From positions 1 to 64,000 of the forward strand of contig JBEKXL010000013.1 in assembly GCA_049512075.1 (NCBI GenBank): a stretch of DNA of 64,000 nucleotides, given 5' to 3'. Source of the DNA: Candidatus Bathyarchaeia archaeon (GTDB lineage Archaea; Thermoproteota; Bathyarchaeia; Bathyarchaeales; Bathycorpusculaceae). The notes below the pieces were generated by a model. The model was not told the DNA's origin. It saw nothing but the letters and a program-made list of their open reading frames with translations, and did not search any database. Both the position numbers and the translations under genes were made by a program. Of this stretch, positions 1 through 57,593 are shown one piece after another. Within the stretch, counting starts at the first letter, position 1, and each line of letters opens with the position of its first letter.

Positions 1-434
1 TACCGTGAAAATGATAGCAATGTTTACATCTAAGATTACAGTTGTCCGTCACATCAACTTCTGCAAAATACTTCACTTTAAATATAATCCTCTTTAGTTC
101 AAGCCAAAAAAGATACAACAATACACGCGCGTATTCTCCCATGATAGAATTATTACAAAGAAAGCGCTAGTTAAATGCTTCATAGATTCTAGCGCGAGCT
201 CAGGGTAGGGTGATTATCAGGAGCATGATTCAGCTGAGTGTAGGAAGAGGGAGGTAAAGTTTTGTCCAACCAAACCAAACCTGACGACGTGCTACGTGGA
301 AATAGAGTGGGTTATTGAGAGACAGTATACACGGTTCAGCTATGCTAGGTTTGTGGTAATGGAAAGAGAGGTATAGTAGAAATCAGGTCATAATAGGGTA
401 CGTATATAGGGGTTATCGGAATCGAGTATACGGC

Positions 435-982
435 CTATGAACTGGAACGCTGAACAGTTAGCAAAACCATTAGGGCGATTATGTCAAGAACAATCAATAG
501 CTTAAGCAACATCACTGCGTTTCGGTAAAACCTGTATTTGGCTCTCACGATCTTCAGTTCAGCATTTACAGCTCTTTGGTAGTTGTCAAAGATATCCTGG
601 CTTGTGAAGCTTTGGAAGCATTTCTTGAATTCCTCGTCGTTTTTCAACATTCGTTCGATGTTCGGGTTGTGTTCAGGCCAGAAGAGATATTTCTCACACG
701 CAAGTTGTTCAGGGCTGCACGCCCCCAAAAGAAGTAACGGCTGGGGCGAATCGTTTGAAGGAATAGCAGGCAACTGCTCAAAGAGAGAATAGTGTGTACA
801 CCCAAAAAAACGTACCTGCCAGTATTGAAAAAAAACTCCCTAGTAATGTATCCATAAGCTACGAGCAACCCGATAACTAACGCCAGAAAAATGTTCGACC
901 TGTTACCTACCATCTGCACCCGATTTTCTAGGTAAGATAAAACATTTTGAAAGAACTCAGTATTTTCCACCTGCAACCCCAA
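435..982 (-). pseudogene. Frameshifted Pycsar-effector-like (DUF5706/PycTM-like) membrane protein
   Basis: ORF 644-982 (…NRSNIFLAL…TM…LFLQTIRP) and ORF 435-773 (YLFW…F…L.IVRAKY…NAVMLL-TM) join into one DUF5706-like 3-TM protein. The frame changes near a TTTTGGGGG run at 722-730. Confidence 0.55.
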
Positions 983-1156
983 AAACTAACTATTCCTATT
1001 TTGAATTAAAGCCTTGCACGCGCTGATGCACATCTTGTGTACGACAAGGACCATCTATCAGATCAAGTGTTTGACACCTTAAAGTCAGATTCATAGCGCG
1101 CGCGTGATAAACAACACTTTTAAGTTATTTGATGCTAATTAAGAAAGCAATTCTGA

Positions 1157-1672
1157 GTGGTTGAAACCATGAAAATGAGAATGATAAAACTACGCCCTGA
1201 ATTCCTCATAGAAAAACTGCAAGGAAAAGTATCATCTTTCACTTCCAACCTGCCAGACGATATAGAACTTTTAGATGTTAAGTACGACTTGTTTTCCAAG
1301 CAAGTATCGGCAATCATAAGAAGCGACAGTTTTGAAGACGTTGCAGAATCCTATCCAATTCCCGAATTCAATATAATCTACACGACAAACCCCAAAGCCG
1401 AATCTCAGCCCACAACAAACTCCAAACCTGAATCTAAGCCCACAGAGAAAACGCCGGTTCAGCCAAGTCAAGACACAAGCGCAGTAGAAAAAGAATTCAG
1501 CCCAGAGCAGCGCAAGTTGTTAAGTTTCACCGCAGACGGAGAATACGTCATAATAAAGCCAAATCAATACTTGAAGAATGAGTGGGATGAAATTAACGAT
1601 ACTGTGAGAAGTTTAGGTGGTAAATGGACGAAAGGCGACAGCTTCAGCTATTGGGCAATTCGACGAACCTAG
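1157..1672 (+). CDS. Hypothetical protein with Pro/Thr/Ser/Glu-rich linker
   Basis: 171-aa ORF with natural composition and two globular parts separated by a PKAESQPTTNSKPESKP linker; TTTTAA box upstream. Confidence 0.7.
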   Translation: MVETMKMRMIKLRPEFLIEKLQGKVSSFTSNLPDDIELLDVKYDLFSKQVSAIIRSDSFEDVAESYPIPEFNIIYTTNPKAESQPTTNSKPESKPTEKTPVQPSQDTSAVEKEFSPEQRKLLSFTADGEYVIIKPNQYLKNEWDEINDTVRSLGGKWTKGDSFSYWAIRRT

Positions 1673-1731
1673 CGAGCATAAAGCAAAGTACCCAAAGACT
1701 AGTTTCTTAGCGCGCGCGAGGTCATAAGAAT

Positions 1732-1968
1732 ATGAGGTATGCACTTGAACCCAGAGGACTAGAAAGAGTGATTGGAAACTACAAGGCGGATCCAGTGACA
1801 AACTTCATACTTCCAGGCACTTACAAGATTGGAGATTCTTATGAAGTGTTCAAGAAAAAAGCAATGAAAAAACTCGAAGAGCTTCATGAAGGAGAACTGC
1901 GACAGCACTACGGAGAAGCAAAAGGATACGCTGAGAAAATAGCAAAAGGAAACGATTCAGTTTGTTGA
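1732..1968 (+). CDS. Hypothetical protein, possibly a 5'-truncated fragment
   Basis: 78-aa ORF; the frame stays open back to the (CG)n tract at 1710-1718. Confidence 0.35.
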   Translation: MRYALEPRGLERVIGNYKADPVTNFILPGTYKIGDSYEVFKKKAMKKLEELHEGELRQHYGEAKGYAEKIAKGNDSVC

Positions 1969-1983
1969 AATGTTAGGCGCGAA

Positions 1984-2051
1984 GCATAATGCATTCAGAG
2001 TATCGTTAATAAGTCTTAAGGCACAACAACACATTTAACGTCACACTGTTG
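1984..2051 (+). repeat. 68-bp dispersed repeat (copy 1; copy 2 at 47733-47800)
   Basis: GCATAATGCATTCASAGTATCGTTAATAAGT…CATTTAA..GNCACAYTGTTG is shared by both loci. Confidence 0.75.
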
Positions 2052-2096
2052 ATTTGGAAAACAAGAGAACGCGTGCCAGTTCGGAAAAAGGAAGAG

Positions 2097-2226
2097 TTAT
2101 GGATTGTGTTGCCCGTAGTGCATGGCCATTGTAACGAGGTTTGTGAGACTGATTATTCCGTATGGTGGAGCTATATCTGCCAACGGATTCCAGTCTGGAT
2201 TCCCAGGCTTTGAATTGTAGGCTGAA
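2097..2226 (-). pseudogene. C-terminal dockerin/EF-hand-like remnant of a surface protein
   Basis: Reads SAYNSKPGNPDWNPLADIAPPYGIISLTNLVTMAMHYGQHNP*, has no start codon and begins exactly at the (CG)n tract 2227-2234. Confidence 0.7.
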
Positions 2227-2363
2227 GCGCGCGCTTGTCCTGCTGGGACACGCGCTAATCGTTCCGTACCCTCCGAGTAATTACATATACACTCGATGTT
2301 ATGCCGTTTAACCTCACACTTACACTTGAAAACGCGCGCTGTAGGGTGGCTTTGGTTTACAGC

Positions 2364-3164
2364 CTATACAGTGAAGTCGATTGTCACCGTATGGTCTGCG
2401 TCTAAGCCGCTGAAGTTGTAAGTATTGCCATTTATTGTGATGGTTCCACTATAAACGCCATAGTTTGGACCGCCAGTCTGAGTAACAGCGAATATAAGGT
2501 AGTGTGCTCCGCCTGCTAAATTCCATTGGAAGGTCATGGTATCACCGCTGTAATGAGCTTCGTCAACGTCAGAGCCAACATGGTCGCCTCCAGGGGCAAA
2601 GGGAGGCATCGGTCGGTCAAACACTACATCCCAAGTCCTAGGATAACCATCGTTAGGATCACTGGCATAGATTTGAACGGTTGTTACCGTGGGGCCCGTG
2701 GGGCTGCCTGTGATTTGTATCGTAAATCCGTGGGAACCAAGGCTCGCTGTTTGATTTATGGTTAATGTTATCGTGATTGGATACAATTGACCCACGCCCA
2801 AGTCTCCAGACGCGGGCATGTTCCATGAAATCGTTCCAATGGGACCTAAGTCTGAAGATGCTATCGAGAATGTATGAAGGTCGACGTTACCAGTATTATT
2901 CAGATATCCCATCCAAGTTCCTGTCTCACCTTGGGGAATATTTTCAAATGATATAGATGTTATGACGGTTGAATTGTCAGAAGCGATTAATTGCAATGCT
3001 GGATCTGCGCTAACTACAGCAACATTTGAAGGAATATTCAGAACATAATTTGTTACGGCGGCGTATCCGATTACTGATGTTATCGCGATAATTGCCAACG
3101 CTATGAACCAAAATCGTTTGCTTATCACCTTTTCCTTAAAGATCGTTTTTTCACCTCCCCCCAT
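2364..3164 (-). CDS. Secreted/cell-surface beta-rich protein
   Basis: N-terminal KR + hydrophobic signal (KRFWFIALAIIAITSVIGYAA) and Thr/Ser/Gly/Asn-rich Ig-like body; start uncertain. Confidence 0.75.
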   Translation of the reverse strand: MGGGEKTIFKEKVISKRFWFIALAIIAITSVIGYAAVTNYVLNIPSNVAVVSADPALQLIASDNSTVITSISFENIPQGETGTWMGYLNNTGNVDLHTFSIASSDLGPIGTISWNMPASGDLGVGQLYPITITLTINQTASLGSHGFTIQITGSPTGPTVTTVQIYASDPNDGYPRTWDVVFDRPMPPFAPGGDHVGSDVDEAHYSGDTMTFQWNLAGGAHYLIFAVTQTGGPNYGVYSGTITINGNTYNFSGLDADHTVTIDFTV

Positions 3165-3505
3165 TCTGTCCCGAAATCTGGTAGAGCTGGAATTGATTCG
3201 GCTAGGCCACAAATAAAATAAAGTTCTGAGCAACATATAAAGTTTGTGACATCCAGTATGTTACGATTGCTTCAACTTTCGGATGCCAGAGGGGTAGAAT
3301 CGACGGAAAAATTGCCGGCAGATGCCAATTCAGACATTTCCTTTTCTTCACATTCAAAAGTAGTAAGGCATTATAAATCCTATGCTAAAGTTGTCTGTTT
3401 CGTTTTGTTAGACTCATAATGACAAAAGACAAACGCATACACAACAGATAAAAAGCCTTTCACGTGTTTATAGAAGAAAGAAACAATGAAGAAAGGGACT
3501 CCAAT

Positions 3506-3958
3506 ATGAAACTTGATATCGGGTGTGGTGGTAACAAGAAGCCAGGTTTCTCGGGCGTCGATATCAATCCCGGTGAACAAGTTGATTTCGTAATGGACGT
3601 GCAAAAACTGGAATTCGAAGAAAATAGTATCGATGAAATCTTCTCACGCAGATGCATCCAGCACGTGGAAGACGATAAGAAAGCCTTGAGTGAGATTTTT
3701 AGAGTTTTGAAACCCAATGGCATCTTTACGCTTGAGATTGCATCTTGGTATGGCTGGTTGTACTATCGCCTGCATTTGTCCTCTTCCTACGGCAACTACA
3801 AGATTTTCCACTTGTATCGAGACTCGAAAATCAAGAAAAAGTTGGAAGAAGCTGGATTCACAATTCAGAATCTGCATCATATCCATGGTCCTAGAGGAAT
3901 GGGATACGACATTCAGGTTATTAGTAAAAAAGAAGCCGCGAATAAGAAACCAACCTGA
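3506..3958 (+). CDS. Class I SAM-dependent methyltransferase (type 11)
   Basis: LDIGCG motif I, GVDI, EIFRVLKPNG. Confidence 0.85.
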   Translation: MKLDIGCGGNKKPGFSGVDINPGEQVDFVMDVQKLEFEENSIDEIFSRRCIQHVEDDKKALSEIFRVLKPNGIFTLEIASWYGWLYYRLHLSSSYGNYKIFHLYRDSKIKKKLEEAGFTIQNLHHIHGPRGMGYDIQVISKKEAANKKPT

Positions 3959-5069
3959 AAACTGCCGTATTTTTGATACCAAGTTCAATATGCCCCTATT
4001 CAAAAGGCTGATTCGACCAAACCACTAATTTCAGAAGTTACAGCGTCAAATCCATGGGAAACCGCTTTGATTCTGTTGCCCAGGTTTGTAATCGGTTTGG
4101 CGAAGTCATCGAGTTTTGGCTGCGCAACGGCAAAACAATCTGACTTTAGACGGTTAGCGTCGCCAAAAAGAGCCGAGATTTCGAGACTAAAACAGATCCA
4201 TCTCCACACGTCCGCGATCGGAAAGCTAAAGGTGGAGCAAAAGCTAACAAGAGACATTAAGCCCGTCCAGCAAATAGCGCGCGCGCTACGTTCCCATTCT
4301 TGCAAGGGCTTCCAACAATGCCACTGGCCTTCACATCAATTACCAATCGCAACTCGTCTGAATGATTAAAGAAAAGGCTTTTGTTTATACTATGTTGTCT
4401 GATGACTCACTGGCGAGTATTGGTTTGGGGCAAAGCTTTATCGACTCTGTTTTCGATCTCTGGACAAGCATCACATTTTCGGCGGGAACACTTTCTCATT
4501 AGACCTCACACTGGCTAAAATGGGTGCAGCGGCACATGTTGGTAGTGACTCGATACACAATTTTAACTCGGATTGCGGTGATTGTTCATTGGAACTGCGC
4601 TTCAAAAAGAGACAAAAAAGATAGGACTCTACTATTATCTCATTTCGTGCGCTTTAGACCGACACGCCCAAGTTTCGATTCGTCTCATTCGTTCTTCAAT
4701 TTCCTTCGCATTTTGCATGTTTTTCACCTCTGTTTGTTTCTTAGCAGACATGCCAAAAGCAAAAACGGAATAATCCGGTTTCACGAGTTCATGGGCAAAA
4801 ATCTTGCTTACTCCAACAGAGTCAGGAACGCAGCATATTAACTTACTGGATTCAAAATCAGTATTGAGTGCTTGCGAGTTACATCGTATTCGCATGGGAG
4901 CTATTTTGCTTCTTCTCAGTTCTAGCGCTTTGATTAGAGGTAAAAAGAAGCTTGCCAAAGTGTAGCGCGCGTCGGGTGTCCTTCTATTTTCGTTTTCTAG
5001 GAGGCATGACATTCTCATAATTGCATTGCTCGCTTTGGACGTTGGAATGAGAGCTTGACGTCAGAGACA

Positions 5070-8616: not shown

Positions 8617-8739
8617 AGCTTCTGCAGCATCTCCTTAAACATCAAGAATGAAGCGGGTGAGAATTAAAGGCATTCCGTATTCAGCGTGTGCCCCGTCCGA
8701 GCGGCTTGTTCAGAAGAAGGAATAAATACTGGCGCGCGC

Positions 8740-8810
8740 GACGTAGACGGCAACGGCGAAGTGAGCCTGCCAGACCTGACCATTCTGGCTTTTTACCACG
8801 GACAACACTG
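8740..8810 (+). pseudogene. C-terminal dockerin/EF-hand-like remnant
   Basis: DVDGNGEVSLPDLTILAFYHGQH starts exactly at the (CG)n tract 8732-8740. Confidence 0.65.
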
Positions 8811-8966
8811 CCTACAATCCCTGACTAATACATTGAAAATTACATCTGACATTACAAACGAAAGGGCTGAGTCCACTCTGAACGGTAGTCCAGCCTGATT
8901 TTCTTCATGGTTTGTAACAATACACATTACATCTGACATTACAAGTGAAAAAGGGGAGCGACTTTG
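8811..8966 (+). repeat. TTACA-triplet dispersed element (copy 2, 2 units 87 bp apart)
   Basis: About 90% identical (by eye) to the reverse complement of 29116-29271. Confidence 0.9.
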
Positions 8967-9186
8967 CTGGACCATGATGCAAAAGGTGTTTCAGCACACT
9001 TGGATTAGCAGCGCGCGCAGGAGTAGGGTATGTCAGCAAACACAAGCTGAAAACTGTGGAGCCTCGAATTTGCAGATGTTGGTTAACGCGCACCTCAGAG
9101 TCAGAAGGCTACAACAATGTTTTCCTGCCCAGAGGACAAGAGATTTTAGGTTTCAAACGCATAAAGCTAACAGGGTCAAAACTCAG

Positions 9187-41315: not shown

Positions 41316-41317
41316 GC

Positions 41318-42553: not shown

Positions 42554-42559
42554 CCCTAC

Positions 42560-42735
42560 GCCCCCTGCTCTTTTTTTGTGATTTTCAGAATCAAGTTGCT
42601 GTTTTGATTTAGAGCTCGCTTCCATTCTCGTGTGGGACACTGTTTTCGGTAGGTTCGCCTCATCAGGGTCGAGGTAGGGCTCACCTGCTCGGCAAGTGTC
42701 CAGCACGAGAAGCAATTTATGCTCCGTTTCTGGGA
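42560..42735 (+). repeat. Structured element family A, copy 1 (abuts the integrase stop)
   Basis: Rod hairpin TTCTCGTG..GGACACT / AGTGTCC..CACGAGAA; homologous to 44171-44295 (reverse), 44311-44440, 47889-48058 and 57321-57368. Confidence 0.85.
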
Positions 42736-44078: not shown

Positions 44079-44170
44079 GGTAGAGGAAACACTCCGCTTT
44101 ACCTACCTTCCTTTCATAGCGGCGGGAACGGCGCATGTTCGTCGGGGCCTACCCCTACCCTACCTTTTTG

Positions 44171-44514
44171 CTAAACGGAGCCTGAATCTTATCTCGTGCA
44201 GGACACTGATTCAGGAGGCTAACAGGTTCTGACTCTTAGGTCGCTGAACCCTCTGGAACAGTGTCGCACACGAGAATAGAAACGAGTTGCTTTTCGGATG
44301 CATGCAAAACCTAAACGGAGCTCGGAAAACTGTCCACCTGAACCGCCGTTTCCGAGGCTCAGTGGCTCCACGAGTGTGAATCGTTGAACCCTCTCGGCGA
44401 GTGAGCAGCACGGACAGTAATTCAAGCTCCGTTTTCGGCTAGCCCCCTTCTCTCCGTGCACTGATTGCAAACAGTGCAGAGCGTGCAGTAGAGCCGGTCT
44501 GCTGAGCGCGCGCG
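44171..44514. repeat. Family A copies 2 (reverse) and 3 plus a TGCA palindrome, ending at a (CG)n tract
   Basis: AAACGGAGCT/AGCTCCGTTT, ACTGTCC/GGACAGT and CCGAG/CTCGG stems; TGCACTGATTGCAAACAGTGCA at 44457-44478. Confidence 0.85.
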
Positions 44515-44557
44515 TGTTTTGGAAGAATGGTTGGTTATTGCGTTTTCTCTGTTCTGT

Positions 44558-46144: not shown

Positions 46145-46359
46145 TCTATGTCCCTTCCCTGCGTAATTTATAGATTGATTGAATCAGTTCATATGATTTG
46201 TGGAAGCGCGTTCGTGGGATGTGTCTTGAGCAGGCGGTGTATTAGTAGGCGCCGGTGATGTTGTTGTGGGAGTTATGGTTTGTCCAAAGACGTAGCGCGC
46301 GCGTTCTGCAGGCTAGTCTCATCTGTTCTAAAGCTTAGACTTAACTAAGGGAACCGTAC

Positions 46360-47664: not shown

Positions 47665-47732
47665 TAATGTACAGCCACGCGCGAGCTAAACAAACATTAA
47701 GACAGAATAGTGTTTCAACGACCAAAGTGAGG

Positions 47733-47800
47733 GCATAATGCATTCACAGTATCGTTAATAAGTTTAATGTTCCACTATCGCATTTAAAGGCACATTGTTG
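47733..47800 (+). repeat. 68-bp dispersed repeat (copy 2 of 1984-2051)
   Basis: Direct sequence match. Confidence 0.75.
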
Positions 47801-47888
47801 CCAATCGCATGCGCACATCATTGTTAATGCAGATAACCAATGAAAATCAGCGTAATGTTTTTGAGGCGCGCGCTAGCGAGTGTAGCCC

Positions 47889-48285
47889 CCTACTCCTTTT
47901 TGTTGATTTCCTAAATCAGGTTGCTTTTTTGTTTTAGAGCTCGCAAAACTGTCATCGCAAACCGCCGTTTCCGAAGCCGAACGCCTTCTGGAGTGCGAAC
48001 CACCGTACCCTCTCGGCGAGTGAGCAGCACGGACAGTAATTCAAGCTCTGTTTCGGGGCTCACCCCCTACACTCACTGCCTTGATTGCAACCAAGGCAGG
48101 GCATGCACCCTAGCCCCCTTCTCTCTGCGCACTGGTTGCAAACAGTGCAGAACGTGAAGTTAGGAGTCTACTCTATCAACCACAATCCGTGCTTAGGTTG
48201 CAACCTAGGCAGAGCGTGCAGTGGAGCTGATCTGCTTAGGAAGGTCAACGAATAGAGGAACATTAGCAACCTTAAGACTAACTAC
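47889..48285 (+). repeat. Family A copy 4 followed by three TGC-N5-TTGCAA-N5-GCA palindromes
   Basis: Palindromes at 48077-48098, 48128-48149 and 48190-48211; bounded by (CG)n tracts at 47866 and 48285. Confidence 0.85.
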
Positions 48286-48807
48286 GCGCGCTAAGAGCTT
48301 GAGTCGCCAATGCTTCCTTATCGCTTCATAATTGGGCGGCTTGCCTCTCACATTTCTTTTTTTCAACTCAATGAACACGTCAATCATTTCTAGCAAAATC
48401 TCTTTGCATCGTGAATCGTACTTTCCACCTGGAAAAGTGTCCTTTAGTTTGGAAAACTCTAATAGCAGTTCTATTTGCTCCTTCTTTGTTATGGAATAAG
48501 GAAGCAAAGCCTCGGCTATTTGTCTAATCTCGCGTTCTGTTGTCACAAGAACCCGATACATGTCTTTGTGATACTTCTCCTTCGCTCTCACTTTGTCATA
48601 ACTGACACCAAAAATGTTGGCAACAAATCTAATCGATTCTTCGTGAGACATTGAGATTTCTATCATGGGCGTGAAGTGATGGTTGTCTTTTCCTGTTATT
48701 CTTATGGCAAATGTACCTTCTCCATCCATTAGCCCCGCGATGTACTGCAAGTTCTGGTCCAAGATGTCGGGGTCAATGTTTGCAACCTTTTTAAACTTCC
48801 ACGTCAA
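48205..48807 (-). CDS. Free-standing single-motif LAGLIDADG endonuclease-like protein; native 3' end probably replaced
   Basis: YIAGLMDGEGTF, LLPYSITKKEQ; the last ~27 codons read through the (CG)n tract into repeat DNA. Confidence 0.8.
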   Translation of the reverse strand: MTWKFKKVANIDPDILDQNLQYIAGLMDGEGTFAIRITGKDNHHFTPMIEISMSHEESIRFVANIFGVSYDKVRAKEKYHKDMYRVLVTTEREIRQIAEALLPYSITKKEQIELLLEFSKLKDTFPGGKYDSRCKEILLEMIDVFIELKKRNVRGKPPNYEAIRKHWRLKLLARVVSLKVANVPLFVDLPKQISSTARSA

Positions 48808-49013
48808 GAATCTACCCCCTGTACATATGGCAGGTCATAGCCCAATAAAAAGATTAGAAAATGTTCGGATTTGTGCCGCTACAAGAAGTGTGCACAAGAA
48901 ATTATATCAACGTTCAGCGCGCACGGGAATAAGAATAGACCTTGCCGTCCCCAGATGTCCGTCCTCTAGTAGCGCGTGCACCTTAAATATCCAAATCATA
49001 AATATCCTGAGAA

Positions 49014-49658
49014 ATGGGGATTTGTGTGAGTAAGGAATCGGCAGTCTCTAACCCTGAAGATGTGCGGTTCAGGAACATAATTGGAATGGGATTGGACTTT
49101 TCTTCTATGATAAGACTCTTCAAAAAAAATTCAGAGACTAAGCTGGAGAAGAAGATAGTTGAAGATTATGGGCCAAGAATCTTCAAAGCCCAATCTGGAG
49201 AGGAATTCAACAAGATTCACAAAGAATTTTGTAAATGCGGTACGCGCGCTATAAAACTAGCTGAAAAAAGAACAAGGAACGGGCGAATCATAAAGGAAGG
49301 ACCTGCAACTTACGGCCAAATTGCAAAAACCTTCAACATTGCTTTGAAAGTGATTGTGTATTACTGTCACCTGCCTGACCATCAAAAAAGTGCGGAGATT
49401 GTGGAGTGGCTGCATGCAGGTGTCGACACCCGTATGATGGCAATGCTCAAGAAAAGGCTGAAGGGAAAACACCCGGAGTACTTCGAGGATTGGCCGGAGG
49501 CGGTGAAGGATGTGGACAGCGAAAAGAAATACTTGGAGCTTCAGGAAGTTGTTCGTATATTCATCAGGGAGAAACATGACGAAAAGCTTCGGTTGCCCGT
49601 GCATTTTGATGACGTCTATTGGTATAGAATAACACAAGGACTCGAAAAGGGTTGCTGA
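49014..49658 (+). CDS. Hypothetical protein
   Basis: 214 aa; TYGQIAKTFNI.LK, LH..VD..M, FDDVYW resemble small nucleic-acid-associated accessory proteins; unassigned. Confidence 0.7.
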   Translation: MGICVSKESAVSNPEDVRFRNIIGMGLDFSSMIRLFKKNSETKLEKKIVEDYGPRIFKAQSGEEFNKIHKEFCKCGTRAIKLAEKRTRNGRIIKEGPATYGQIAKTFNIALKVIVYYCHLPDHQKSAEIVEWLHAGVDTRMMAMLKKRLKGKHPEYFEDWPEAVKDVDSEKKYLELQEVVRIFIREKHDEKLRLPVHFDDVYWYRITQGLEKGC

Positions 49659-50206
49659 ACTGGCATGTAGTTAGCGCGCGCGGAAACGGTGTAGAAAGCC
49701 TTGACTTATTGTCGCAATTGTCAGGGTGAGGATTACAATGTTGGAGAAAGCAACCCAAAACAAGGTGTTCCCGCACAGACACAAAAACTTGACTCCTCTT
49801 CAACCATTTTTAGCAACGAGCCTGAACAGAATAAGAAAAAAGAGTGTGTGCGGGGAGCAACACAAAAACAACCTGATGAGGGAAAGCAACTCGTTTCAAG
49901 GAATCAACTGACAGAGCCATAGGACACCTGGCAAATCAGAAGCCAGGCTTTGACTCTTGCTGATTTGGATTCCGCATGCGAAAGCTATCCTAGTTCGGAC
50001 CCCTGCACACCTGCGCAGGATAAGAGCCTTTCATTTACAGGGTAAGTGTTTCAGCAACATTGTGGCATGGTTCAAATGGCTTGCGAATCTGAACCCCGTT
50101 AAGATAAAAGAGCCACGGGACCATGCTATCAACTTTTCAGCACGGTCCTGTAAGGCTTCAAATAACGTGACAAGTCACGCATTCTGACCCTCCTTACTAA
50201 GCTCGC

Positions 50207-50384
50207 TGCACTGTTTGCAATCAGTGCACGGAGAGAAGTTGAGGAGCCTTAACAGGGAGAGTTTAAGGTTGAGACCTCGTCAATTGGTAGTCAGTCTCTA
50301 AGTTGCTAATGTTCCTTTAGCCGTTAACGTCCCTAAGCAAAACTCCGCTCTAAGACACTCCCTGCACTGTGTGCAAGCAGTGCA
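50207..50384 (-). repeat. Inverted copies of the TGCA palindrome and its flank
   Basis: 50207-50238 is the exact reverse complement of 44447-44478; 50287-50339 is the reverse complement of 48233-48285 (43/53); further palindrome at 50363-50384. Confidence 0.85.
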
Positions 50385-50636
50385 AAAAACTCATGAATTT
50401 CCAACATCGTTTCAACATCCTTTCAGCGCGTTCAAAAATGCTGTATTGGTTGGTTTTCAACATGCTTTGCCCTGCATGCTGAACCCAGTCGGAAGTCCTC
50501 TGTACTCTCGCGCGCGCTTTTGTTGGACATAGGGCCACTTGTGCAGACGACATCAGAAAAGGTTAGAGTGAAGCATTTCAATCCTGCTTGATTATTAAGT
50601 GATAAATATGTGGCCAGACAACTTTAGAGTGGCAGA

Positions 50637-52193
50637 ATGGTTTCAATGGTTAAGACTTCATTATCCCCAAGAAAAGTGACAAGAGATGAGTTGAATGGTC
50701 TTGTTGATAGAGCTGCTGACTTGATTAGAACTGCTGTGGATTACAAGTTTATTCTTGTTTTGCTTTTTCTGAAGAGGCTGAATGACCTTTGGAAAGTGGA
50801 GAAGGCTGAAGTCAAGAATAGGCTTGTGAAGGAAAGTGGATGGGCAGAGGAAGAAGCTGACAAGGAGGCTGAGAGAAAGGACTATCATAGCGTAGACATT
50901 CCCAAGCAGTTTCTCTGGGATGAAATAACCAAAGATGTGAATAATCTGCCTCAGAACCTAGCCACGGGCATAGGTGAGACTGCCAAGCTTAACAGTCAGC
51001 TGCAAGGAGTGATTAACAGAGTTGACTTTTTGGAGTTTGCCCGAAACCAAGAGAATAGGGAATTGTTGAGGCAGTTGGTTGAACTTTTTGACAAGTATAA
51101 TCTTGGTGGGGAAGAGGTTTCTCCAGATGTTCTTGGAGATGCCTATGAACATATTCTGATGAAGTTTGCTCCAGACAAGGCTAAGGAGGGTGAGATTTAC
51201 ACTCCCCGAGAAGTTATCAAGTTGATGGTTGAGATTCTGGACCCTAAGCCCGGTGAGAGTGTGTATGACCCTTGCTGTGGCTCCGGTGGAATGCTCATTA
51301 TTTCTTACTTGCATGTTGCTGAGAAGTATGGAGTAGAAGAGACCAGAAGACTGTTTCTGTTTGGGCAAGAGAGAAGCCCAGAGATCTATGCTGTTGGACA
51401 GATGAACTTGCTCTTGCATGAAATAAAGAATGCTAACTTGGCTAATGGAGATACACTGGATTATCCGAGATTCAGAGAGAATGGAAACCTCAAGCAGTTT
51501 GATGTTGTCATTGCCAATGTTCCCTGGAACCAAGATGGATACGGAGAAGAAAGACTCAAAAAGAGTGATCTGAAGGGACGATTCAGTGATGGTTATGGAA
51601 CGAAGAGCAGTGCTGACTGGGCTTGGGTTCAGCACATGCTTGCTTCAACCAAGCAGAATGGCAGAGTTGCTCTTGTTGTGGATAATGGCTGCTTGTTCAG
51701 AGGAGCAGCAGAAAAAGCAGTTAGAAGCAAAGTGATTGACAAGGACTTAGTTGAATGTGTCATTCTATTGCCCCAAAAGTTGTTCTACAATACAGGAGCC
51801 CCTGGAGCCATAATAATATTCAACAACAATAAACCAGCAGACAGGAAAGACAAGATACTTTTCATTAATGCCTCCAATGAAGTCATTCCTCATCCTTCAG
51901 TTAGAAGGCTGAACTCACTTTCAAAAGAGAACATGACAAGAATAGTGGAGTCATACCAGAAATTCAGTTCTGCAGAAGGCTTCTCCAAGCCTGTTGACAT
52001 AAAGGACATTGTTAACAATGACTACAACTTGAATGTGACACTGTATGTCATGCCCGTAGAGAAGACAGAGGAGATAGACTTAGCCAAAGAGCTTTCTGAG
52101 CTCAAACACTTGGAAAAGGATAGGCAAGAAACTACCAACAAGCTGGAGAAGTATGTTTCTGACATAGCTCAAGCAACTGGGGATTCACATTGA
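50637..52193 (+). CDS. hsdM: Type I R-M methyltransferase subunit
   Basis: GEIYTPREV, YDPCCGSGGML, GQE, ANVPWN, LFYNTG, YNLN. Confidence 0.95.
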   Translation: MVSMVKTSLSPRKVTRDELNGLVDRAADLIRTAVDYKFILVLLFLKRLNDLWKVEKAEVKNRLVKESGWAEEEADKEAERKDYHSVDIPKQFLWDEITKDVNNLPQNLATGIGETAKLNSQLQGVINRVDFLEFARNQENRELLRQLVELFDKYNLGGEEVSPDVLGDAYEHILMKFAPDKAKEGEIYTPREVIKLMVEILDPKPGESVYDPCCGSGGMLIISYLHVAEKYGVEETRRLFLFGQERSPEIYAVGQMNLLLHEIKNANLANGDTLDYPRFRENGNLKQFDVVIANVPWNQDGYGEERLKKSDLKGRFSDGYGTKSSADWAWVQHMLASTKQNGRVALVVDNGCLFRGAAEKAVRSKVIDKDLVECVILLPQKLFYNTGAPGAIIIFNNNKPADRKDKILFINASNEVIPHPSVRRLNSLSKENMTRIVESYQKFSSAEGFSKPVDIKDIVNNDYNLNVTLYVMPVEKTEEIDLAKELSELKHLEKDRQETTNKLEKYVSDIAQATGDSH

Positions 52194-53479
52194 TTTTTGG
52201 CAAAGAGACTGACTTTAAAGAGACTAAGACTGGCAGATTCCCTTCAGACTGGCAAGATGCTAAACTTGAAGATGTGTTGTCTCAGCTTAGAAATGGAATA
52301 GTTGCCTCACAAAACAAAGAGGGAAGAGGCATTCCTATTACAAGAATAGAAACAATTTCTGATGAGAAGATTGACTTAAACAAGCTTGGCTACTTGGAGA
52401 AAGCAAATGGGTTGAACTATGATAATTTCTTATTGACTGATGGGGACATACTGTTCAGTCACATCAATAGCCTTGAGCATATTGGCAAGACTGCTTTGTA
52501 TGAAGGTGTCCCAGAATCATTGCTGCATGGAATGAATTTGCTTCTTTTGAGACCTAAGAAGGATGTTTTAAACCCCAAGTATCTCGTGTATCTGCTAAAG
52601 TTGTTTAGGCAAAGAAACCTCTTTAGGGCAATTGCAAAGAAAGCTGTAAATCAAGCCTCTATCAATCAGACTGAACTGGGCAGAGTGAGAGTCCCAATTC
52701 CCCCCATGTTTGAGCAGCAAGGGATTGTTGAAGTTCTTTCTTGCGTTGATTTGGCTATCAAGAAGACTGATGAAGTTATTGCCAAAACTGAGAGATTCAA
52801 GAAGGGTTTGATCCAGAAGCTTCTGAGAGAAGGAATAGGACATAGGGAGTTCAAGGACTCAGACATTGGGAGAATTCCAAAAGCGTGGGAATCAGCCACC
52901 TTTGAGGAAGTCACCACTAGAATAACTTACGGATTTACAAACCCGATGCCTCATGTGGAAAAAGGGCATTATATCGTAACAGCAAAGAATGTTGGAGATG
53001 GTAGAATAGACTACTCTTCTGCAAATATGACAACTGAGGAAGCCTATTGCAATCTTCTTACAGACAAGAGTCGCCCCAAGAAGGGAGATGTCTTGTTTAC
53101 AAAGGATGGAACAATAGGCAAAGCTGCAGTTGTAGATAGAGATTCGATTTGCATCAGTCAATCAGTTGCATTGCTCATTCCAAAGGAAAATCTAGTTCGT
53201 GCATCCTACCTTTCTTGGACACTGCAGTCGCCTGCAATCCAAAGCTTGGTCAATTATCATTCTGCTACGACAACAATTCCTCATCTTGCCATCACTAAAT
53301 TGGCAAAGATGAAGCTTGGGCTTCCTTCTCTCACTGAGCAGCAAGCAATCAGTGATGTTCTATCCACAGCGAACAGGAGATGCCAACTTGAAAGAGATGA
53401 AAAGACAAGATTGAAAAGGATTAGGCAGGGTCTGTTGGATATTCTTCTCACTGGCAAAGTGAGGGTTAAGGTGGATTAG
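52190..53479 (+). CDS. hsdS: Type I R-M specificity subunit
   Basis: Two TRDs with P..W, GD.LF, PP..EQ and LL.G conserved repeats. Confidence 0.95.
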   Translation: MIFGKETDFKETKTGRFPSDWQDAKLEDVLSQLRNGIVASQNKEGRGIPITRIETISDEKIDLNKLGYLEKANGLNYDNFLLTDGDILFSHINSLEHIGKTALYEGVPESLLHGMNLLLLRPKKDVLNPKYLVYLLKLFRQRNLFRAIAKKAVNQASINQTELGRVRVPIPPMFEQQGIVEVLSCVDLAIKKTDEVIAKTERFKKGLIQKLLREGIGHREFKDSDIGRIPKAWESATFEEVTTRITYGFTNPMPHVEKGHYIVTAKNVGDGRIDYSSANMTTEEAYCNLLTDKSRPKKGDVLFTKDGTIGKAAVVDRDSICISQSVALLIPKENLVRASYLSWTLQSPAIQSLVNYHSATTTIPHLAITKLAKMKLGLPSLTEQQAISDVLSTANRRCQLERDEKTRLKRIRQGLLDILLTGKVRVKVD

Positions 53480-53480
53480 G

Positions 53481-56400
53481 ATGCTCTACAATGAGAAAGG
53501 AACAGTGGAAGATTTCATTATCCAAGAGTTGCAGAGTTCTTCTCTTGGTTGGAAGTATGTAGAACCTCAGCTTATGGCTGAAAAGAAAAAGGGAGACTTT
53601 GAGCAGCCTCTGGTTGTTGATGACCTTAAGAATGCAGTTAGAAAACTGAATAGTTGTTATGAGCTAGCTGATGCAGACCTTGACTATGTGATAACTTCAC
53701 TGAAAGCTATGCCAACCACCATTGAAGGTATCAGAGTCTTTTTGGACAAGTTTAGAAATGGGTTTGTTGTTCCTTTGCAGAAGGAAGGCAAAGAGAGACT
53801 ATTGAGAATTGTTGACCTTCAGAACTATGGGAATAATGAGTTCACAGTAACCAGACAGTTCAAAGTAGAAGGCTTGAAGGCAACAATCAGAGCTGACATA
53901 GTTTTACTGGTTAATGGCATTCCCTTGGTGCTGATTGAATGCAAGAGCCCAACTGCAGAAAAGTCAGACTGGACCTATGCCTACAGACAAATCAAGAGGT
54001 ATGAGAATGAAGCTCCAGAAGTCTTCAAGTATGTTCAATTCTCAATGGTCACAGATGGCCTGAAAACCAGATATTTCCCAAACAGCTTCCGTGAAGAAAA
54101 TAAAGACTATCTCAGCACTTGGAAAGACCCATACCCCTTCCAGTTTGAAAAGAAAGATGACTTCAAGGTTGCCATCTATGGACTCTTGGCCAAACACCAT
54201 GTCTTGGACTTTATTGAGAACTTCATCTTTGTCAAGAAAGAGATAGACAACCCAACCAAGATAATGACCAGATACATGCAGTACAGAGCAACCAGCAAAA
54301 TCTTTGAGAGAGTCAAGAAAACCCTTGGAAAAGAGCAGGACAGCAAGTTTGGGTTGATATGGCATTGGCAAGGCTCTGGCAAAACCTACACTATGGCGTT
54401 TTCAGCATGGAAGCTTTTCCATTGCCCAGAAGCCAAGAAGCCTAGCATCTACATTGTTGTGGACAGAAAAGACCTTGAAGAACAGATTGAGAAGGACTTT
54501 TCATTCATTGAGGTTCCCTTGGAAAAAGTGGAGTCAATAAAGAAGCTTATTGAGAATTTGAAATGGGGAACAGAAGGCAAAAGGGGCATATTCCTTGTAA
54601 CAATAGAAAAATTCAGTCCTAAAGAAATTGACCAGCTCAGAAAGGAAGAGTCCTTAGAGATTCAGAGGCAGAATGTTGTTGTCTTTGCTGATGAAGCGCA
54701 CAGAACACAGTATGGCAAGTTCTCCACCATGATGAGAAGCATCTTCAAAGAGGCCTTCATCTTTGGCTTCACTGGAACACCACTCTCCAAAGTTGAAAGA
54801 AACACTTTCCAGAAGTTCTGTCCAAAAGATGAACTCTATTTGGATAGGTATTCAATGCTGGATGCTTTGGAAGATGGCTTCACTGTGGCACTGAACTATG
54901 AGGCAAGGCTGCCAGACTATCATCTAAAGCCACAGCAACTGCAAGAATTCACCAAGTTTGAAGAAGAAGAGATACAGCCTCTGTCCTCAGATGAAAAGAG
55001 AACCCTGAACAAGAAAGTCAGTGCAATCAAAGCCTTTGTCAAAGAACCAAAAAGGATTGGCAGGATAGTAGACGACGCTGTAAAGCACTTCAAAGGAATT
55101 GTTGAGCCAACAGAACTCAAAGCCTTGCTAGTCACAATTGACAGAGAAGCATGTGTCCAATACAAGAACTCCATTGACAAGATTCTGCCAGAAACCACTT
55201 CTGAAATAGTGATGACCTTCAGCCAGAATGACAAACCCATCATAAAAGCGTACTTTGAGAAGCTTAAGGAAAAATATCAGACTGCAGATGTCAAGGAAAT
55301 CCATAGAAAGATAATTGACAACTTCAAGACCAAGAAAGAACCCAAGATTCTCATTGTAACTGACATGCTCATCACTGGGTTTGATGCTCCCAACCTTTGG
55401 ACAATGTATCTTGACAAGCCACTGAAAGAGCATAGGCTGCTGCAAGCAATAGCCAGAACAAACAGACCCTACAGCAACAAGAAGTTTGGATTGATAGTTG
55501 ACTACATTGGCATCTTGGCAGAGCTAGAGAAAGCCTTTGAAAAGTTTGAGGCTCAAGACTCTAAAGCTCTGAGGATTGTAATAAGAAAGCTTGATGAAGA
55601 GAAAGAAGAATTCAAACAGCTTCTGGCTCAAGCCTTAGAAATTTTCAAAGCTGTCAAAAGGGAAAACACCAGAGAAAGCTTGGAGAGTGCATTAGACCTT
55701 CTTGCAGACTTGGAAACAGCCAGTAAATTTGAAGACAGCATTAGAAGCCTCATGAAATCCTATGAGATGCTCAGAGGAGACCCGTTCCTCAGACCCTATC
55801 TGCTTGACTACACTTGGCTGATAAAAGTGTATGTTGCCTACTACAAGAAATATCTGCAAGCAGATGTGGATGAACTCAAGATTAGAGAACTCTCAAAGAA
55901 GACAATGCAGCTAATCCAAGAAGCCATAGATACAAAAGAAATAGACACAACTTATCAGCCTCTTGCCATTGATGAAAAGTATATTGAACTTCTGAAAAAG
56001 ACAGCTGCAAAGCCGATTGGTGCTCCAATAGATTTGATTCCAAGCATTCTGGTTGAAGCCAGACAACATCCTAACTCCCCTTTCTTTATAAACTTGGGCA
56101 GAGAAGTGGAAAAAGCCTATGAACAACTGAGAACAAGAAAACTGAAAACCCAAAAAGCATTACAGAAACTGCTAACCTTCTCACAGCGAATAGTTGAATG
56201 GAAAAAAGAAGAAGCAGAAATTGGCAAAGAAAAGTATCCACTCTATGAAGCAATCAAAATAGTTCTGCCAGAAACAGACAAACAGAAAACCATAGCCTTC
56301 ATCACCAGACTCCTGGCCCACTTGGAAAGCAGAAAGCTACTGTTCAAAAACTGGCAGAATCAAAGAGACATAAGAAGAAAAGTCAAAGCAGAAACCAGAC

Positions 56401-56489
56401 TAATGCTCCTCTCAGAGTTCAAAGAGCACAAGAACAAGATAGAGGACTTGACTGATGGGATAATCAATGCACTGGAGAAAACACAATGA
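53481..56489 (+). CDS. hsdR: Type I R-M restriction subunit
   Basis: DIVLLVNGIPLVLIECK nuclease, QGSGKT, DEAH, FTGTP, TGFDAP, QAIARTNR. Confidence 0.96.
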   Translation: MLYNEKGTVEDFIIQELQSSSLGWKYVEPQLMAEKKKGDFEQPLVVDDLKNAVRKLNSCYELADADLDYVITSLKAMPTTIEGIRVFLDKFRNGFVVPLQKEGKERLLRIVDLQNYGNNEFTVTRQFKVEGLKATIRADIVLLVNGIPLVLIECKSPTAEKSDWTYAYRQIKRYENEAPEVFKYVQFSMVTDGLKTRYFPNSFREENKDYLSTWKDPYPFQFEKKDDFKVAIYGLLAKHHVLDFIENFIFVKKEIDNPTKIMTRYMQYRATSKIFERVKKTLGKEQDSKFGLIWHWQGSGKTYTMAFSAWKLFHCPEAKKPSIYIVVDRKDLEEQIEKDFSFIEVPLEKVESIKKLIENLKWGTEGKRGIFLVTIEKFSPKEIDQLRKEESLEIQRQNVVVFADEAHRTQYGKFSTMMRSIFKEAFIFGFTGTPLSKVERNTFQKFCPKDELYLDRYSMLDALEDGFTVALNYEARLPDYHLKPQQLQEFTKFEEEEIQPLSSDEKRTLNKKVSAIKAFVKEPKRIGRIVDDAVKHFKGIVEPTELKALLVTIDREACVQYKNSIDKILPETTSEIVMTFSQNDKPIIKAYFEKLKEKYQTADVKEIHRKIIDNFKTKKEPKILIVTDMLITGFDAPNLWTMYLDKPLKEHRLLQAIARTNRPYSNKKFGLIVDYIGILAELEKAFEKFEAQDSKALRIVIRKLDEEKEEFKQLLAQALEIFKAVKRENTRESLESALDLLADLETASKFEDSIRSLMKSYEMLRGDPFLRPYLLDYTWLIKVYVAYYKKYLQADVDELKIRELSKKTMQLIQEAIDTKEIDTTYQPLAIDEKYIELLKKTAAKPIGAPIDLIPSILVEARQHPNSPFFINLGREVEKAYEQLRTRKLKTQKALQKLLTFSQRIVEWKKEEAEIGKEKYPLYEAIKIVLPETDKQKTIAFITRLLAHLESRKLLFKNWQNQRDIRRKVKAETRLMLLSEFKEHKNKIEDLTDGIINALEKTQ

Positions 56490-56992
56490 AACAACTGACA
56501 ATCTTTGGACAACAGCACCTTCTACAAGAAAAGAAGTCTGACAAAGACGCCATTGAACGCAGAAGCAACACAATCATAGTGAACAAGTATCAGAAAACCA
56601 CCAAAACACTGCTTAGAGAGTTCTTAGCCCAACTGCTGTGTGACAAGCTTCTGGAAATATATGACAGCATCAAAGCTGAAGGGAAAGTTGAGCTGTTTGG
56701 AGACTTTGACTTTGAGATTACAGAAAACATTGACGGCAAGAAATCAAGAATAGCTAAGCTGAAAGGAAACAAGGTCATCATAAAACTCAATGCAGTAGCT
56801 CTGCCAGAAAGTGCACTGAAGTATATAGTTGCACATGAAATAGGACACACAACATCAAAAAGACACACAAGCAAGTTCTGGAAGACAGTTGGGCTCATCT
56901 ACCCAGACTACAAGAAAGCCCAGAAACTCCTCAACTCATCACCTCTAAACCTAATCCAACCACAAACCAGAACTATCACTTCAGAAACATGA
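56486..56992 (+). CDS. YgjP/DUF45 M48-like metallopeptidase
   Basis: YIVAHEIGH, H...FW..V…PDY; usual fourth gene of Type I loci, here short. Confidence 0.85.
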   Translation: MKQLTIFGQQHLLQEKKSDKDAIERRSNTIIVNKYQKTTKTLLREFLAQLLCDKLLEIYDSIKAEGKVELFGDFDFEITENIDGKKSRIAKLKGNKVIIKLNAVALPESALKYIVAHEIGHTTSKRHTSKFWKTVGLIYPDYKKAQKLLNSSPLNLIQPQTRTITSET

Positions 56993-57091
56993 AAGAAAGG
57001 GAGTTCAATGGTAAAGTGTCCAGCGCGCTAATAGGAAACAACACGCCGAACATGCAAAAGCCATCTAGCGCGCTTGCCGTGAAATTCAGTC

Positions 57092-57309
57092 CTATTTGCT
57101 GGCCTTCACGCGTCTTTGGTCTATTCTTGAAAAAGTCCTCGAGCATCCCTTGCAATAATATGTGTCTTTTATTATTAATGTGGGAATACTATCGGCTGAA
57201 AGAGTTTGCAATAACTCTTCATTTTCAATTCCAATATCAGTCTTTCCGCAATAAGGGCAATTGGAAACCGAGATTGTTGTGGCACCAACTGTTGGTAAAG
57301 GACCTGCCG
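57092..57309 (-). pseudogene. Zinc-ribbon gene fragment lacking a native 5' end
   Basis: CPYCG…YYCKGC; the upstream frame runs through the (CG)n tract 57310-57319 into a family A half-copy. Confidence 0.55.
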
Positions 57310-57320
57310 GCGCGCGCGCT

Positions 57321-57368
57321 TCTCGGACAGTGAGCAACACGGCAATCGTTTCAGGCTCCGTTCGGAGT
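57321..57368 (+). repeat. Family A copy 5 (right arm only)
   Basis: CTCGGACAGTGAGCAACACGG…TTCAGGCTCCGTT starts right after the (CG)n tract. Confidence 0.7.
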
Positions 57369-57593
57369 TGAAGTTCAAATGTTAAGCTGGAAAATCAATT
57401 TTCAAACTGCACCTTTGGAGACTTTCCTGCAAAACCTGCCGCCAAATTCGAAAGTCGCTATGCCGAATGGAGTTAACGGTTGCCGCGCGCTATGTAACTA
57501 AATTCCTTTTTTCACCAATTCTTTCTCTTTCTGGCGCGCGCGGAGGAAATGTGAATTTATTAGGCCAAACCAATATACTTCAACCGGGTTAGT

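Follow-up and report, generated by a model that had tools for sequence, protein, structure and literature searches.

Why should short, perfectly alternating runs of C and G recur throughout one stretch of archaeal DNA, and why should they stand beside broken genes? The question is posed by 64,000 nt of a Candidatus Bathyarchaeia archaeon (positions 1 to 64,000 of contig JBEKXL010000013.1, assembly GCA_049512075.1; this whole stretch is called the window below). A first-pass annotation, made from the letters of the window, had listed 30 such tracts and proposed that they mark DNA breakpoints; all 30 positions do hold alternating CG runs of 6-10 nt, 12 of them at least 9 nt long, as it had claimed. 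Going beyond that annotation, we find that the tracts are a trait of a whole genus, that insertion sequences (ISs) and miniature inverted-repeat transposable elements (MITEs) of the IS5 family carry GCGCGC at their ends, and that a Ku/LigD operon is present elsewhere in the genome. The occurrence of tracts at deletions, insertions and rearrangements points to a hitherto undescribed route by which broken DNA is sealed or reshuffled. The archaeal group concerned is abundant and uncultured, and to our knowledge nothing is known of how it maintains its genome.

The host genome (G000) is a Bathyarchaeia metagenome-assembled genome (MAG) of 2.73 Mb in 86 contigs, with 47.5% G+C. Relatives were picked through the family B polymerase of the window and are all labelled Bathyarchaeia or Bathyarchaeota; the comparison set of 31 genomes comprises five of the genus (G000-G004) and 26 from 25 other genera of the family or order. 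G002 is ~95% identical to G000 where the two can be aligned, and 1.5 of its 2.3 Mb were compared; G003 is 93% complete and G001 77%. The assemblies of G002, G003 and G004 consist of few, long contigs, and tracts are present there too. Genomes of the genus are the largest of the set (2.2-2.7 Mb versus 0.9-2.0 Mb elsewhere; the 77% complete G001 measures 1.5 Mb). Expected tract counts were taken from a first-order Markov estimate on the genome and scaled to 64 kb for the window. Genes were called with a home-made codon log-odds finder, whose calls cover 74.5% of the genome, so that genic and non-genic tract figures are approximate. Three independent metagenome runs were also compared: X2 and X4, from other samples and studies, and X7, which holds a strain ~1% diverged.

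The window contains 43 alternating CG runs of at least 6 nt, 13 of which (6-8 nt) come in addition to the 30 first listed, the one at 30067 having been named in the annotation outside its list. Exactly 12 reach 9 nt or more (10 nine-mers and 2 ten-mers), and 18 reach 8 nt or more where ~1.3 are expected. Genome-wide there are 669 runs of 6 nt, 195 of 7 nt, 284 of 8 nt, 186 of 9 nt and 105 of 10 nt, followed by only 3, 2 and 1 of 11, 12 and 13 nt. The 581 runs of at least 8 nt compare with ~56 expected words, and expectation falls to 13 at ≥9 nt and 3.2 at ≥10 nt; arithmetic on the same estimate puts the excess at ~9-, 24- and 58-fold for 8-, 9- and 10-mers. From these counts and their expectation, the length distribution is peaked at 8-10 nt and ends abruptly at 10, and no comparable hump was present genome-wide in other alternating dinucleotides.

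The hallmark tract is a perfect GCGCGCGC stretch, found by the hundred in this genome and its close relatives. Alternation is perfect, with no central phase-slip form among the 40 commonest runs made of G and C only, and the phase is strongly biased towards a leading G (genome-wide, 250 (GC)4 versus 34 (CG)4, and 90 (GC)5 versus 15 (CG)5). An A precedes (GC)4 in 69% of cases and a T follows in 67%, which makes A(GC)4-5T the commonest form. As for the TA flank described in the first-pass annotation, the full TA stands on ~30% of solo-tract sides. Left A and right T occur independently of each other (112 observed together, 112.7 expected), as does TA on both sides of (GC)4 (16 observed, 16.9 expected), and conservation outside the tract extends no further than 1-2 nt. 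An excess of 2-6-nt direct repeats was looked for around 571 solo tracts and is absent, so these tracts show no target-site duplication. Most tracts (~90%) fall outside the crude gene calls (258 of 284 eight-mers, 165 of 186 nine-mers and 96 of 105 ten-mers). They are spread over all contigs with the spacing of random placement in non-genic DNA, neither more regular nor more clustered.

The motif is specific to the genus and common to its five genomes. AGCGCGCGCT occurs 115 times in G000 and 29, 87, 69 and 98 times in the four others, compared with no more than nine copies in each of the 26 genomes from other genera, and its reversed control yields 2-6 copies per genome of the genus. Among viral contigs, TAGCGCGCGCGCTA gave 36 single matches and no contig with several. 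As a side observation, 17 of the 80 TAGCGCGCGCGCTA matches listed from a genome collection (at least 119 stretches) fall in Bathyarchaeia or Bathyarchaeota MAGs from several studies (L210, L216, L220, L229, L234, L242-L244, L256, L261, L266-L270, L272 and L276), two of these MAGs having two matches each among those listed; the trait may therefore reach beyond this genus.

Do the tracts mark breakpoints, as was first proposed? We took homology blocks of at least 500 bp between G002 (1.5 Mb) and G000 and asked how many block ends had a tract of ≥8 nt within 15 nt in either genome. A tract was present at 122 of 481 ends (54 in G002, 73 in G000, 5 in both), against 0.5% of random positions and 1.8% of random non-genic positions, a 14- to 50-fold enrichment that bears the proposal out against a relative 95% identical. 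When 293 G002 tracts were placed on G000 by their 100-nt flanks, neither flank was conserved for 157, one flank for 76, and the flanks lay at different loci for 10; the remaining 50 were collinear. Of these collinear sites 27 hold a tract in G000 as well, 6 of them with another length (counted in the two comparison directions, orthologous length differs in 6 and 7 cases), and ~10 orthologous sites differ by 1-2 substitutions inside the tract, as 5% divergence would predict. The same pattern appears within G000: when flanks of different tract loci are aligned with one another, 240 alignments start or stop at the tract and 5 cross it, and a further 897 lie elsewhere in the 150-nt flanks. Between related genomes, a tract and one flank may be common while the other flank is different (several of 23 cases listed). 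As regards the variable DNA itself, ~40% of the first 347 kb of G002 has no counterpart of at least 400-500 bp in G000 despite ~95% identity elsewhere, an unusually large flexible fraction that is mostly non-genic or fragmentary.

The clearest evidence for what the tracts do comes from 25 places where one genome has a tract and the other has 125-2400 bp. Within 14 nt of the ends of the long allele, an alternating run of ≥4 nt was found at neither end in 14 of the 25, at one end in 5 and at both in 6, so that in the majority the tract is absent from both parental sides, the outcome that the first-pass annotation had associated with de novo insertion. In outgroups the long allele was contiguous in three of six tests, namely XPD (in G004), C1:89124 (in G003) and C2:167086 (in G004 and G003); the other three tests found one flank only, and none showed the reverse polarity. 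Because 14 of the long alleles lack a CG run at their ends and three are ancestral by outgroup, we conclude that the tract arose de novo at the deletion joint. Tracts are also gained without loss, at least 7 alleles (counted by eye) having simply acquired 8-12 nt, as in AAG|CTT becoming AAG-AGCGCGCGCG-CTT. Since these plain gains are rarer than the 25 replacements, the counts argue against two tract insertions followed by a deletion between them.

Where the ends of the long allele do contain CG bases, these are used and kept rather than collapsed: GCGC...584 bp...GCGC in one genome corresponds to GCGCGCGC in the other, and in a second case CGC...CGCGCG corresponds to a 9-mer. Joints therefore tend towards 8-10 nt irrespective of what the ends contribute. 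By a hand count made without statistics, CG phase is seen in 6 of the 16 replacement-joint tracts that have an even length, compared with 49 of 389 genome-wide, and the tract population may thus be mixed.

One of these joints lies in the window, in the remnant of an XPD-type helicase gene (coordinates of all features are in the table). The internal deletion proposed there at 24739 is borne out at the DNA level against both G002 and G004. G000 reads ...TTTTTT-ACCGCGCGCGT-AACTGC..., and the long allele of G002 has no CG run at either end. The joint is spanned in independent data: contigs of X2 and X4 cover 23417-25658 with 0 differences, and an 18.6-kb contig of X7 crosses it with a T>C change at 24747, beside the tract. 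Three outcomes that the first-pass annotation had set against its own idea (unspanned junctions, tracts in intact orthologues, no enrichment at breakpoints) were checked, and none overturned it. In G002 itself, the XPD region (C2:53481-55017, L015:13481-15017) contains pieces of Helicase_C_2, HBB and DEAD_2 in three reading frames, and homopolymer differences from G000 are seen there; the gene is either a pseudogene in G002 too or carries the indel errors of a long-read assembly.

The same GC sequence is also found at the tips of mobile elements. Thirty-eight tract pairs enclose inverted repeats that start right inside the tract (GCGCGC-ATGCNTGTTCCTAAAWT and variants), compared with 1 in an outside-flank control. 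Most of the elements so bounded are MITEs of 119-490 bp, and the 1.1-kb elements at C32:7469-8577 and C15:7516-8641, with terminal inverted repeats of at least 20 nt, encode a DDE_Tnp_1/DUF772 transposase that places them, by sequence, in the IS5 family; the transposase gene of the C32 element spans 7493-8365. Close transposase homologues (71-75% identity) are present in all five genomes of the genus, and only distant ones (30-42%) elsewhere. The element ends are exactly 6 nt (GCGCGC) in 72 of 144 motif matches, and 6+6 ends occur in ~20 of the 26 inverted-repeat pairs listed, allowing a register offset of one base. TA precedes about two thirds of MITE outer ends, on small numbers. Since GCGCGC is its own reverse complement, element tip and target duplication look alike.

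Filled and empty alleles of the same site were found at two sites only. At the window MITE, a 12.8-kb contig of X7 lacks the element, passes straight from 35751 to 35928 (ambiguous by 4 nt) and reads AAGAGA-GCGCGCGC-TAACAT. At the second site, a G002 MITE (C1:16599-17042, GCGCGC...GCGCGC) corresponds to (GC)5 at C14:8000 of G000. Empty and filled alleles thus differ by 4 nt in one pair (6+6 versus 8) and by 2 nt in the other (6+6 versus 10). The window MITE has its nearest paralogue at 94.7% identity, while X7 is ~99% identical to G000, for which reason we infer that X7 has lost the element. Elements lie almost exclusively in variable DNA, 29 of 37 in G000 having neither flank in the G002 sample, and a systematic G000/G002 search for IS or MITE copies whose two flanks are both collinear between the genomes came up empty (0 of 6, 0 of 11 and 0 of 37). 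At three G000 element ends the outer flank continues in G002 with no tract there, and the far side is not collinear. In a separate instance, homology between C26:23380-23432 of G000 and C2:114650-114698 of G002 stops at an apparent tRNA gene 3' end (…GGTTCAAATCCCCACCGGTCCACCA) that a MITE directly adjoins in G000; this tRNA end is a possible integration hot spot.

Weighing these results, we give about even chances to the reading that the tracts are lineage-specific scars of break joining that IS5-type elements later reused. At the joints, anything from 0 to ~2.4 kb of original sequence is lost, or ~8-12 nt are simply gained; the two sides of the tract are set independently and without target-site duplication. 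Existing tracts also appear to be reused: IS5-family IS and MITE copies lie between two GCGCGC halves, with element-free alleles of (GC)4 or (GC)5. As a mechanism for such joining we propose that each 3' end would be extended, often with an A first, by self-complementary GC repeats; two GC tails would pair, gaps would be filled and the nick ligated. The stop at 10 nt could mean that a GC duplex of that length is stable enough to seal, or that a template is short. A narrower proposal, which we offer tentatively and hold to be possible rather than probable, is that a break-healing activity dedicated to the task adds one and the same self-complementary GC oligomer to DNA ends, templated by itself, by a protein or by a short RNA, so that any two ends could be paired and sealed without homology. 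For break joining in general, the machinery might consist of an end-joining operon together with a genus-specific factor.

That operon lies on contig C16 of G000 (L103), where LigD_Prim-Pol (5124-5966), Ku (5979-6791) and a ligase with LigD_N (6788-8191) follow one another; the ligase is fused to a 3'-phosphoesterase, which completes a bacterial-type operon for non-homologous end joining (NHEJ). The first-pass annotation had suggested correlating tract abundance with the presence of AEP, Ku and ligase genes; in this comparison the operon does not track the motif. Among the 31 genomes it is found only in G000, G002, G004 and G010.

Several points weigh against break joining as the source of the tracts. 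The operon was not found in G003, which has 69 motif copies at 93% completeness, or in G001, which is 77% complete, and G010 carries it with only 1 motif copy, its PrimPol being 67% identical to that of G000; on this distribution the operon is not sufficient, nor is it shown to be necessary. We know of no polymerase or end-joining system that adds a fixed GC copolymer. The GC-tail chemistry was devised to fit the data, and addition by a polymerase or terminal transferase is conjecture. IS5-like termini (TA|GCGCGC) could supply the leading G, the flanking A and T and the observed lengths alike, and the two filled/empty allele pairs tie 6+6 ends to solo 8- and 10-mers. The excess of CG phase at deletion joints suggests a mixed tract population. 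In addition, the polarised events number only 3, the G002 sample covers 1.5 of 2.3 Mb, all genomes are MAGs and the gene calls are crude.

Other candidate enzymes were looked for by family. Reverse transcriptase (PF00078) was found in 0 of 31 genomes. PolX (PF14792) gave no hit above cut-off in the genus, family A polymerase theta not having been searched for, and C5 methyltransferase (PF00145) likewise gave none above cut-off in the genus, GCGC-type N4/N6 methyltransferases not having been searched for. Y1 transposase genes are present in G000, G001, G002 and G014; the search found none in G003 or G004. The Y1 genes carry CCCCGG-type hairpins of their own, and the 2.5 kb around one copy are free of tracts. 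We rejected a RAYT/Y1 transposase as the agent, as its distribution does not track the motif and its hairpins differ. In G000 the Y1 (IS200/IS605-type) genes are at C3:207195-207554 and C21:29420-29779, with three further fragments, and are flanked by CCCCGGGG-type hairpins; several lie at contig ends, a sign that the assembly may have broken at these repeats.

The alternation of IS5-family elements with solo (GC)4 and (GC)5 makes a transposon-derived origin a serious rival. All tracts would come from the termini of a genus-specific IS5-family IS or MITE (TA|GCGCGC...GCGCGC|TA); excision, or microhomology deletion between the palindromic tips, would leave 8 or 10 nt depending on pairing register, and tracts at arbitrary joints would reflect elements captured at breaks or aberrantly integrated and then lost, or deletions from tip to tip or between tracts. 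Such an origin would account for the G-first phase, the 10-nt ceiling and the perfect alternation with no new chemistry. The inverted-repeat pairs and their transposase, the prevalence of ends of exactly 6 nt, the two filled/empty sites and the restriction of close transposase homologues to the genus all speak for it, and a constant 6+6 when filled with 8 or 10 when empty is more easily reconciled with footprints than with insertion that makes a duplication of fixed length.

Other observations run counter to it. Around solo tracts neither TA nor any other 2- to 6-mer is duplicated, and TA stands on fewer of their sides than on the outer flanks of MITEs, although the latter numbers are small. 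For every element there are more than 10 solo tracts (581 versus ~40-60). Nine-mers, of which there are 186, and CG-phase tracts are not predicted, and the expected product of full annealing, the solo 6-mer, shows no excess once element ends are set aside. The 14 long alleles with no trace of element or tract would each require several successive events, and yet replacements outnumber simple gains. Nor, in the collinearity searches above (0 of 11 and 0 of 37), was there an element with both flanks collinear in the other genome. On this evidence we regard a purely transposon-derived origin as the main rival, possible but less likely than break joining.

A site-specific recombination or cassette system could instead use the tract as its crossover core, swapping DNA segments, often single genes, from tract to tract and creating new tracts through secondary sites. 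The arrangement of tracts in variable regions, often between single genes (44506 / NosD-like / 46295 / serpin), the shared tract with one shared flank in several of the 23 cases listed, the 584-bp segment between GCGC and GCGC that corresponds to GCGCGCGC elsewhere, and a tyrosine integrase in the tract-rich island of the window could all be read in this way. But the 8-10 bp core has no conserved arms, an integron-like array structure was not encountered, and tract spacing is that of random placement. Tracts between genes are equally expected from purifying selection on random scars. Recombination at secondary sites would leave half a tract at an arbitrary joint, not a full one, and in 14 of the 25 long alleles a core is missing from both ends. 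We think this explanation improbable.

Alternating purine-pyrimidine DNA forms Z-DNA and provokes deletions, and the tracts might accordingly be pre-existing Z-DNA- or cruciform-prone fragile sites, or hot spots of topoisomerase cleavage, a possibility raised in the first-pass annotation. Tracts do seem to be reused (a common tract with different flanks), and some orthologous tracts are unequal in length. As an origin, however, fragile sites are refuted by the tract-free ancestral alleles of the three polarised deletions and by the 14 of 25 long alleles that have no tract, and they leave the genus-specific 10- to 60-fold excess unexplained; we consider them very unlikely.

Less credible again is a hyperabundant palindrome of the HIP1 or REP kind (repetitive extragenic palindrome), which a methyltransferase coupled to biased mismatch repair would maintain or a RAYT-type transposase would spread, with a secondary link to breakpoints. 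The genus-specific abundance, the ~10 sites that differ by 1-2 substitutions and the Y1 genes of G000 are what it would lead one to expect. However, ~90% of tracts lie outside genes, unlike HIP1; no C5 cytosine methyltransferase exceeded the cut-off in the genus; Y1 transposases were not found in G003 or G004 and have hairpins of their own; and only about half of collinear tracts are common at 95% identity, with tracts at deletion joints left unexplained. That all genomes are MAGs, and that the frame breaks of the G002 XPD region may be read errors, lends an assembly, adapter or chimera artefact next to no credit, given that three runs, from different studies, each yielded contigs across the XPD joint, in one case with its own SNP beside the tract, and that the motif is abundant in five assemblies of differing contiguity and rare in 26 handled alike.

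Features of the window that bear on the CG tracts (strand given where assigned)
Feature	Position	Strand	Remarks
Tract-rich variable stretch	1096..4286		Tracts at 1096, 1710, 2227, 2333 and 4277; short open reading frames (ORFs) between them
270-bp repeat (dockerin-type gene 3' end plus downstream repeat)	8732..9018		Tracts on both sides
XPD-type helicase remnant	23640..24835	-	Pfam: HBB and Helicase_C_2 kept; DEAD_2/arch part deleted
Filler ACCGCGCGCGT at XPD deletion joint	24737..24747		Replaces ~776 bp of G002, ~788 bp of G004
(GC)4 in coding sequence 29397-30461	30067..30074		Same orthologous site in G002
CGCGCGC at outer end of IS5-type terminal repeat (TGGCTTGTCCCAAAATTGG)	34193..34199		In G002 with one substitution
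Flavin reductase remnant	35343..35684	-	Pfam Flavin_Reduct positions 6-82 of 153; match stops at tract 35418
Three tracts (7, 9, 9 nt)	35365..35426		Between them a 12-nt MITE terminal-repeat remnant and a 25-nt scrap
MITE, 184 bp, ~45-bp terminal inverted repeats	35750..35933		GCGCGC-ATGCNTGTTCCNAAAWTGG ... GCGCGC
20-kb island	41021..61149		Absent from G002; flanked by 12-bp direct repeat AGTTAAGTTAAA
Tyrosine integrase	41270-42553		In 20-kb island
LAGLIDADG remnant	ORF 48205-48807		In 20-kb island; tract inside ORF
Complete type I restriction-modification system	50637-56489		In 20-kb island
Tract cluster (10, 7, 9 nt)	57310..57542		3' side of island type I restriction-modification genes

Several other sites in the window had been read as junctions. 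The truncation of the flavin reductase gene at 35418 stands, as the Pfam match ends at the tract. The 12-nt MITE remnant nearby was read by eye against the terminal-repeat consensus. The impression given by this site, that joins of several scraps are general, was rejected: spacings below 30 nt number 5, against ~13 expected from random placement in non-genic DNA. For the dockerin remnant at 8732, a repeat family bounded by the tracts at 8732 and 9011 is real, while the dockerin label rests on a motif read by eye. At least 6 full copies of this 270-bp repeat (8741-9010) end at identical bases, and at least 7 are cut at differing internal positions with every end capped by a tract. The tract at 48285 had been placed at the 3' end of a LAGLIDADG gene; the domain is present, and the tract lies inside its ORF. 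The (GC)4 at 30067..30074 is an ordinary conserved coding tract and no joint. Near the left end of the window, alignment with G002 starts only at 4456, and G002 has a tract of its own at that joint.

The 20-kb island holds 9 of the 18 window tracts of at least 8 nt, and they fall between genes, in the order 44506 / NosD-like / 46295 / serpin / 47678. Its other genes include those for an ArsR-type regulator, a NosD-like beta-helix protein, a serpin and a YgjP-like peptidase. Adjoining the type I restriction-modification genes, 57594-58661 encodes a 355-aa protein with a TIR domain of the CAP12/Pycsar-effector type (Pfam, 2.9e-24), likely a defence gene within the island to judge from its sequence. 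Just inside the left end of the island, an X7 contig has 302 nt within 41060-41363 replaced by 76 other letters, a strain-level difference. A second, unrelated repeat of ~150 nt, with ATTACATCTGACATTACAA motifs and a G-run, lies downstream of genes at 29116-29266 and 8811-8965; it has many copies in G000, dozens of matches in G002 and G001, and very high metagenome contig depth.

If joints are filled with a constant sequence, this filler would constitute a new signature, either of double-strand-break repair or of the interplay between transposon and host. It would also be a readable, datable mark of each rearrangement, from which rates of deletion, gene gain and island turnover become measurable in metagenomes. 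If break healing by GC tails is what occurs, mobile elements would dock at the resulting joints, gene-sized exchange would hinge on them, and the process would drive the ~40% sequence difference at 95% identity and the larger genomes of the genus; an enzyme that writes a defined self-complementary oligomer onto ends would be a candidate tool for homology-free joining. If the tracts are IS5-type footprints, they would show with unusual clarity how scars of cut-and-paste excision shape the genome of a prokaryote.

How do the tracts compare with known systems? At the level of abstracts, a literature search found no published description of GC-tract joints or of a hyperabundant GCGCGCGC palindrome in archaea. 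The nearest comparison for the joints is Ku/LigD NHEJ, as in Mycobacterium, Pseudomonas and Methanocella: G000 has the full gene set side by side, and the joints resemble end-joining products, with deletions, few added bases and no homology. Described Ku/LigD joints, however, contain one or a few templated or untemplated bases and no constant 8-10-nt GC copolymer, and the distribution of the operon does not match that of the motif. In V(D)J N and P nucleotides and in polymerase-theta insertions, as here, bases absent from both parents are laid down at the joint, and palindromic P nucleotides and short-template copying by polymerase theta are known (see PMC4490562). Those fillers vary with their flanks or are random, whereas here the same sequence stands at hundreds of unrelated joints.

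Excision footprints offer a different parallel. Tc1/mariner and P elements leave short palindromic remnants of their two tips at the donor site, and the element tips here are GCGCGC with empty alleles of (GC)4 or (GC)5. Such footprints are flanked by duplicated target, of which there is none around the solo tracts, and they do not normally sit at kilobase deletion joints. IS5 subgroups mostly make a 2-4 bp target-site duplication, and we know of no footprints described for this family.

As a palindrome confined to one lineage, the tract recalls cyanobacterial HIP1 (GCGATCGC). HIP1 is conserved in position and located within genes, whereas the tracts here are non-genic, turn over quickly and sit at breakpoints. 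HIP1 is described as an 8-bp palindrome 15- to 300-fold over-represented in one lineage (PMC5861425) and is linked to orphan methyltransferases (PMC4390886), with no mention of GCGCGC (0 occurrences) in the latter paper. REP/RAYT systems share with the tracts the character of extragenic palindromes in hundreds of copies, and IS elements target REPs. Occurrence of REPs in archaea is reported in PMC12306157. REPs are 20-40-nt imperfect hairpins beside a RAYT gene, whereas the Y1 hairpins here differ from the tracts and Y1 genes do not track them. A further likeness is to the mobile GC clusters of yeast mitochondria: those clusters, like the tracts, are found at end points of deletion and recombination, and both are short, GC-rich palindromes set in AT-rich non-coding DNA. 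The yeast clusters are structured, 30-50 bp long and associated with a target duplication, whereas in the archaeal chromosome the tract is a bare copolymer of 8-10 bp with no duplication.

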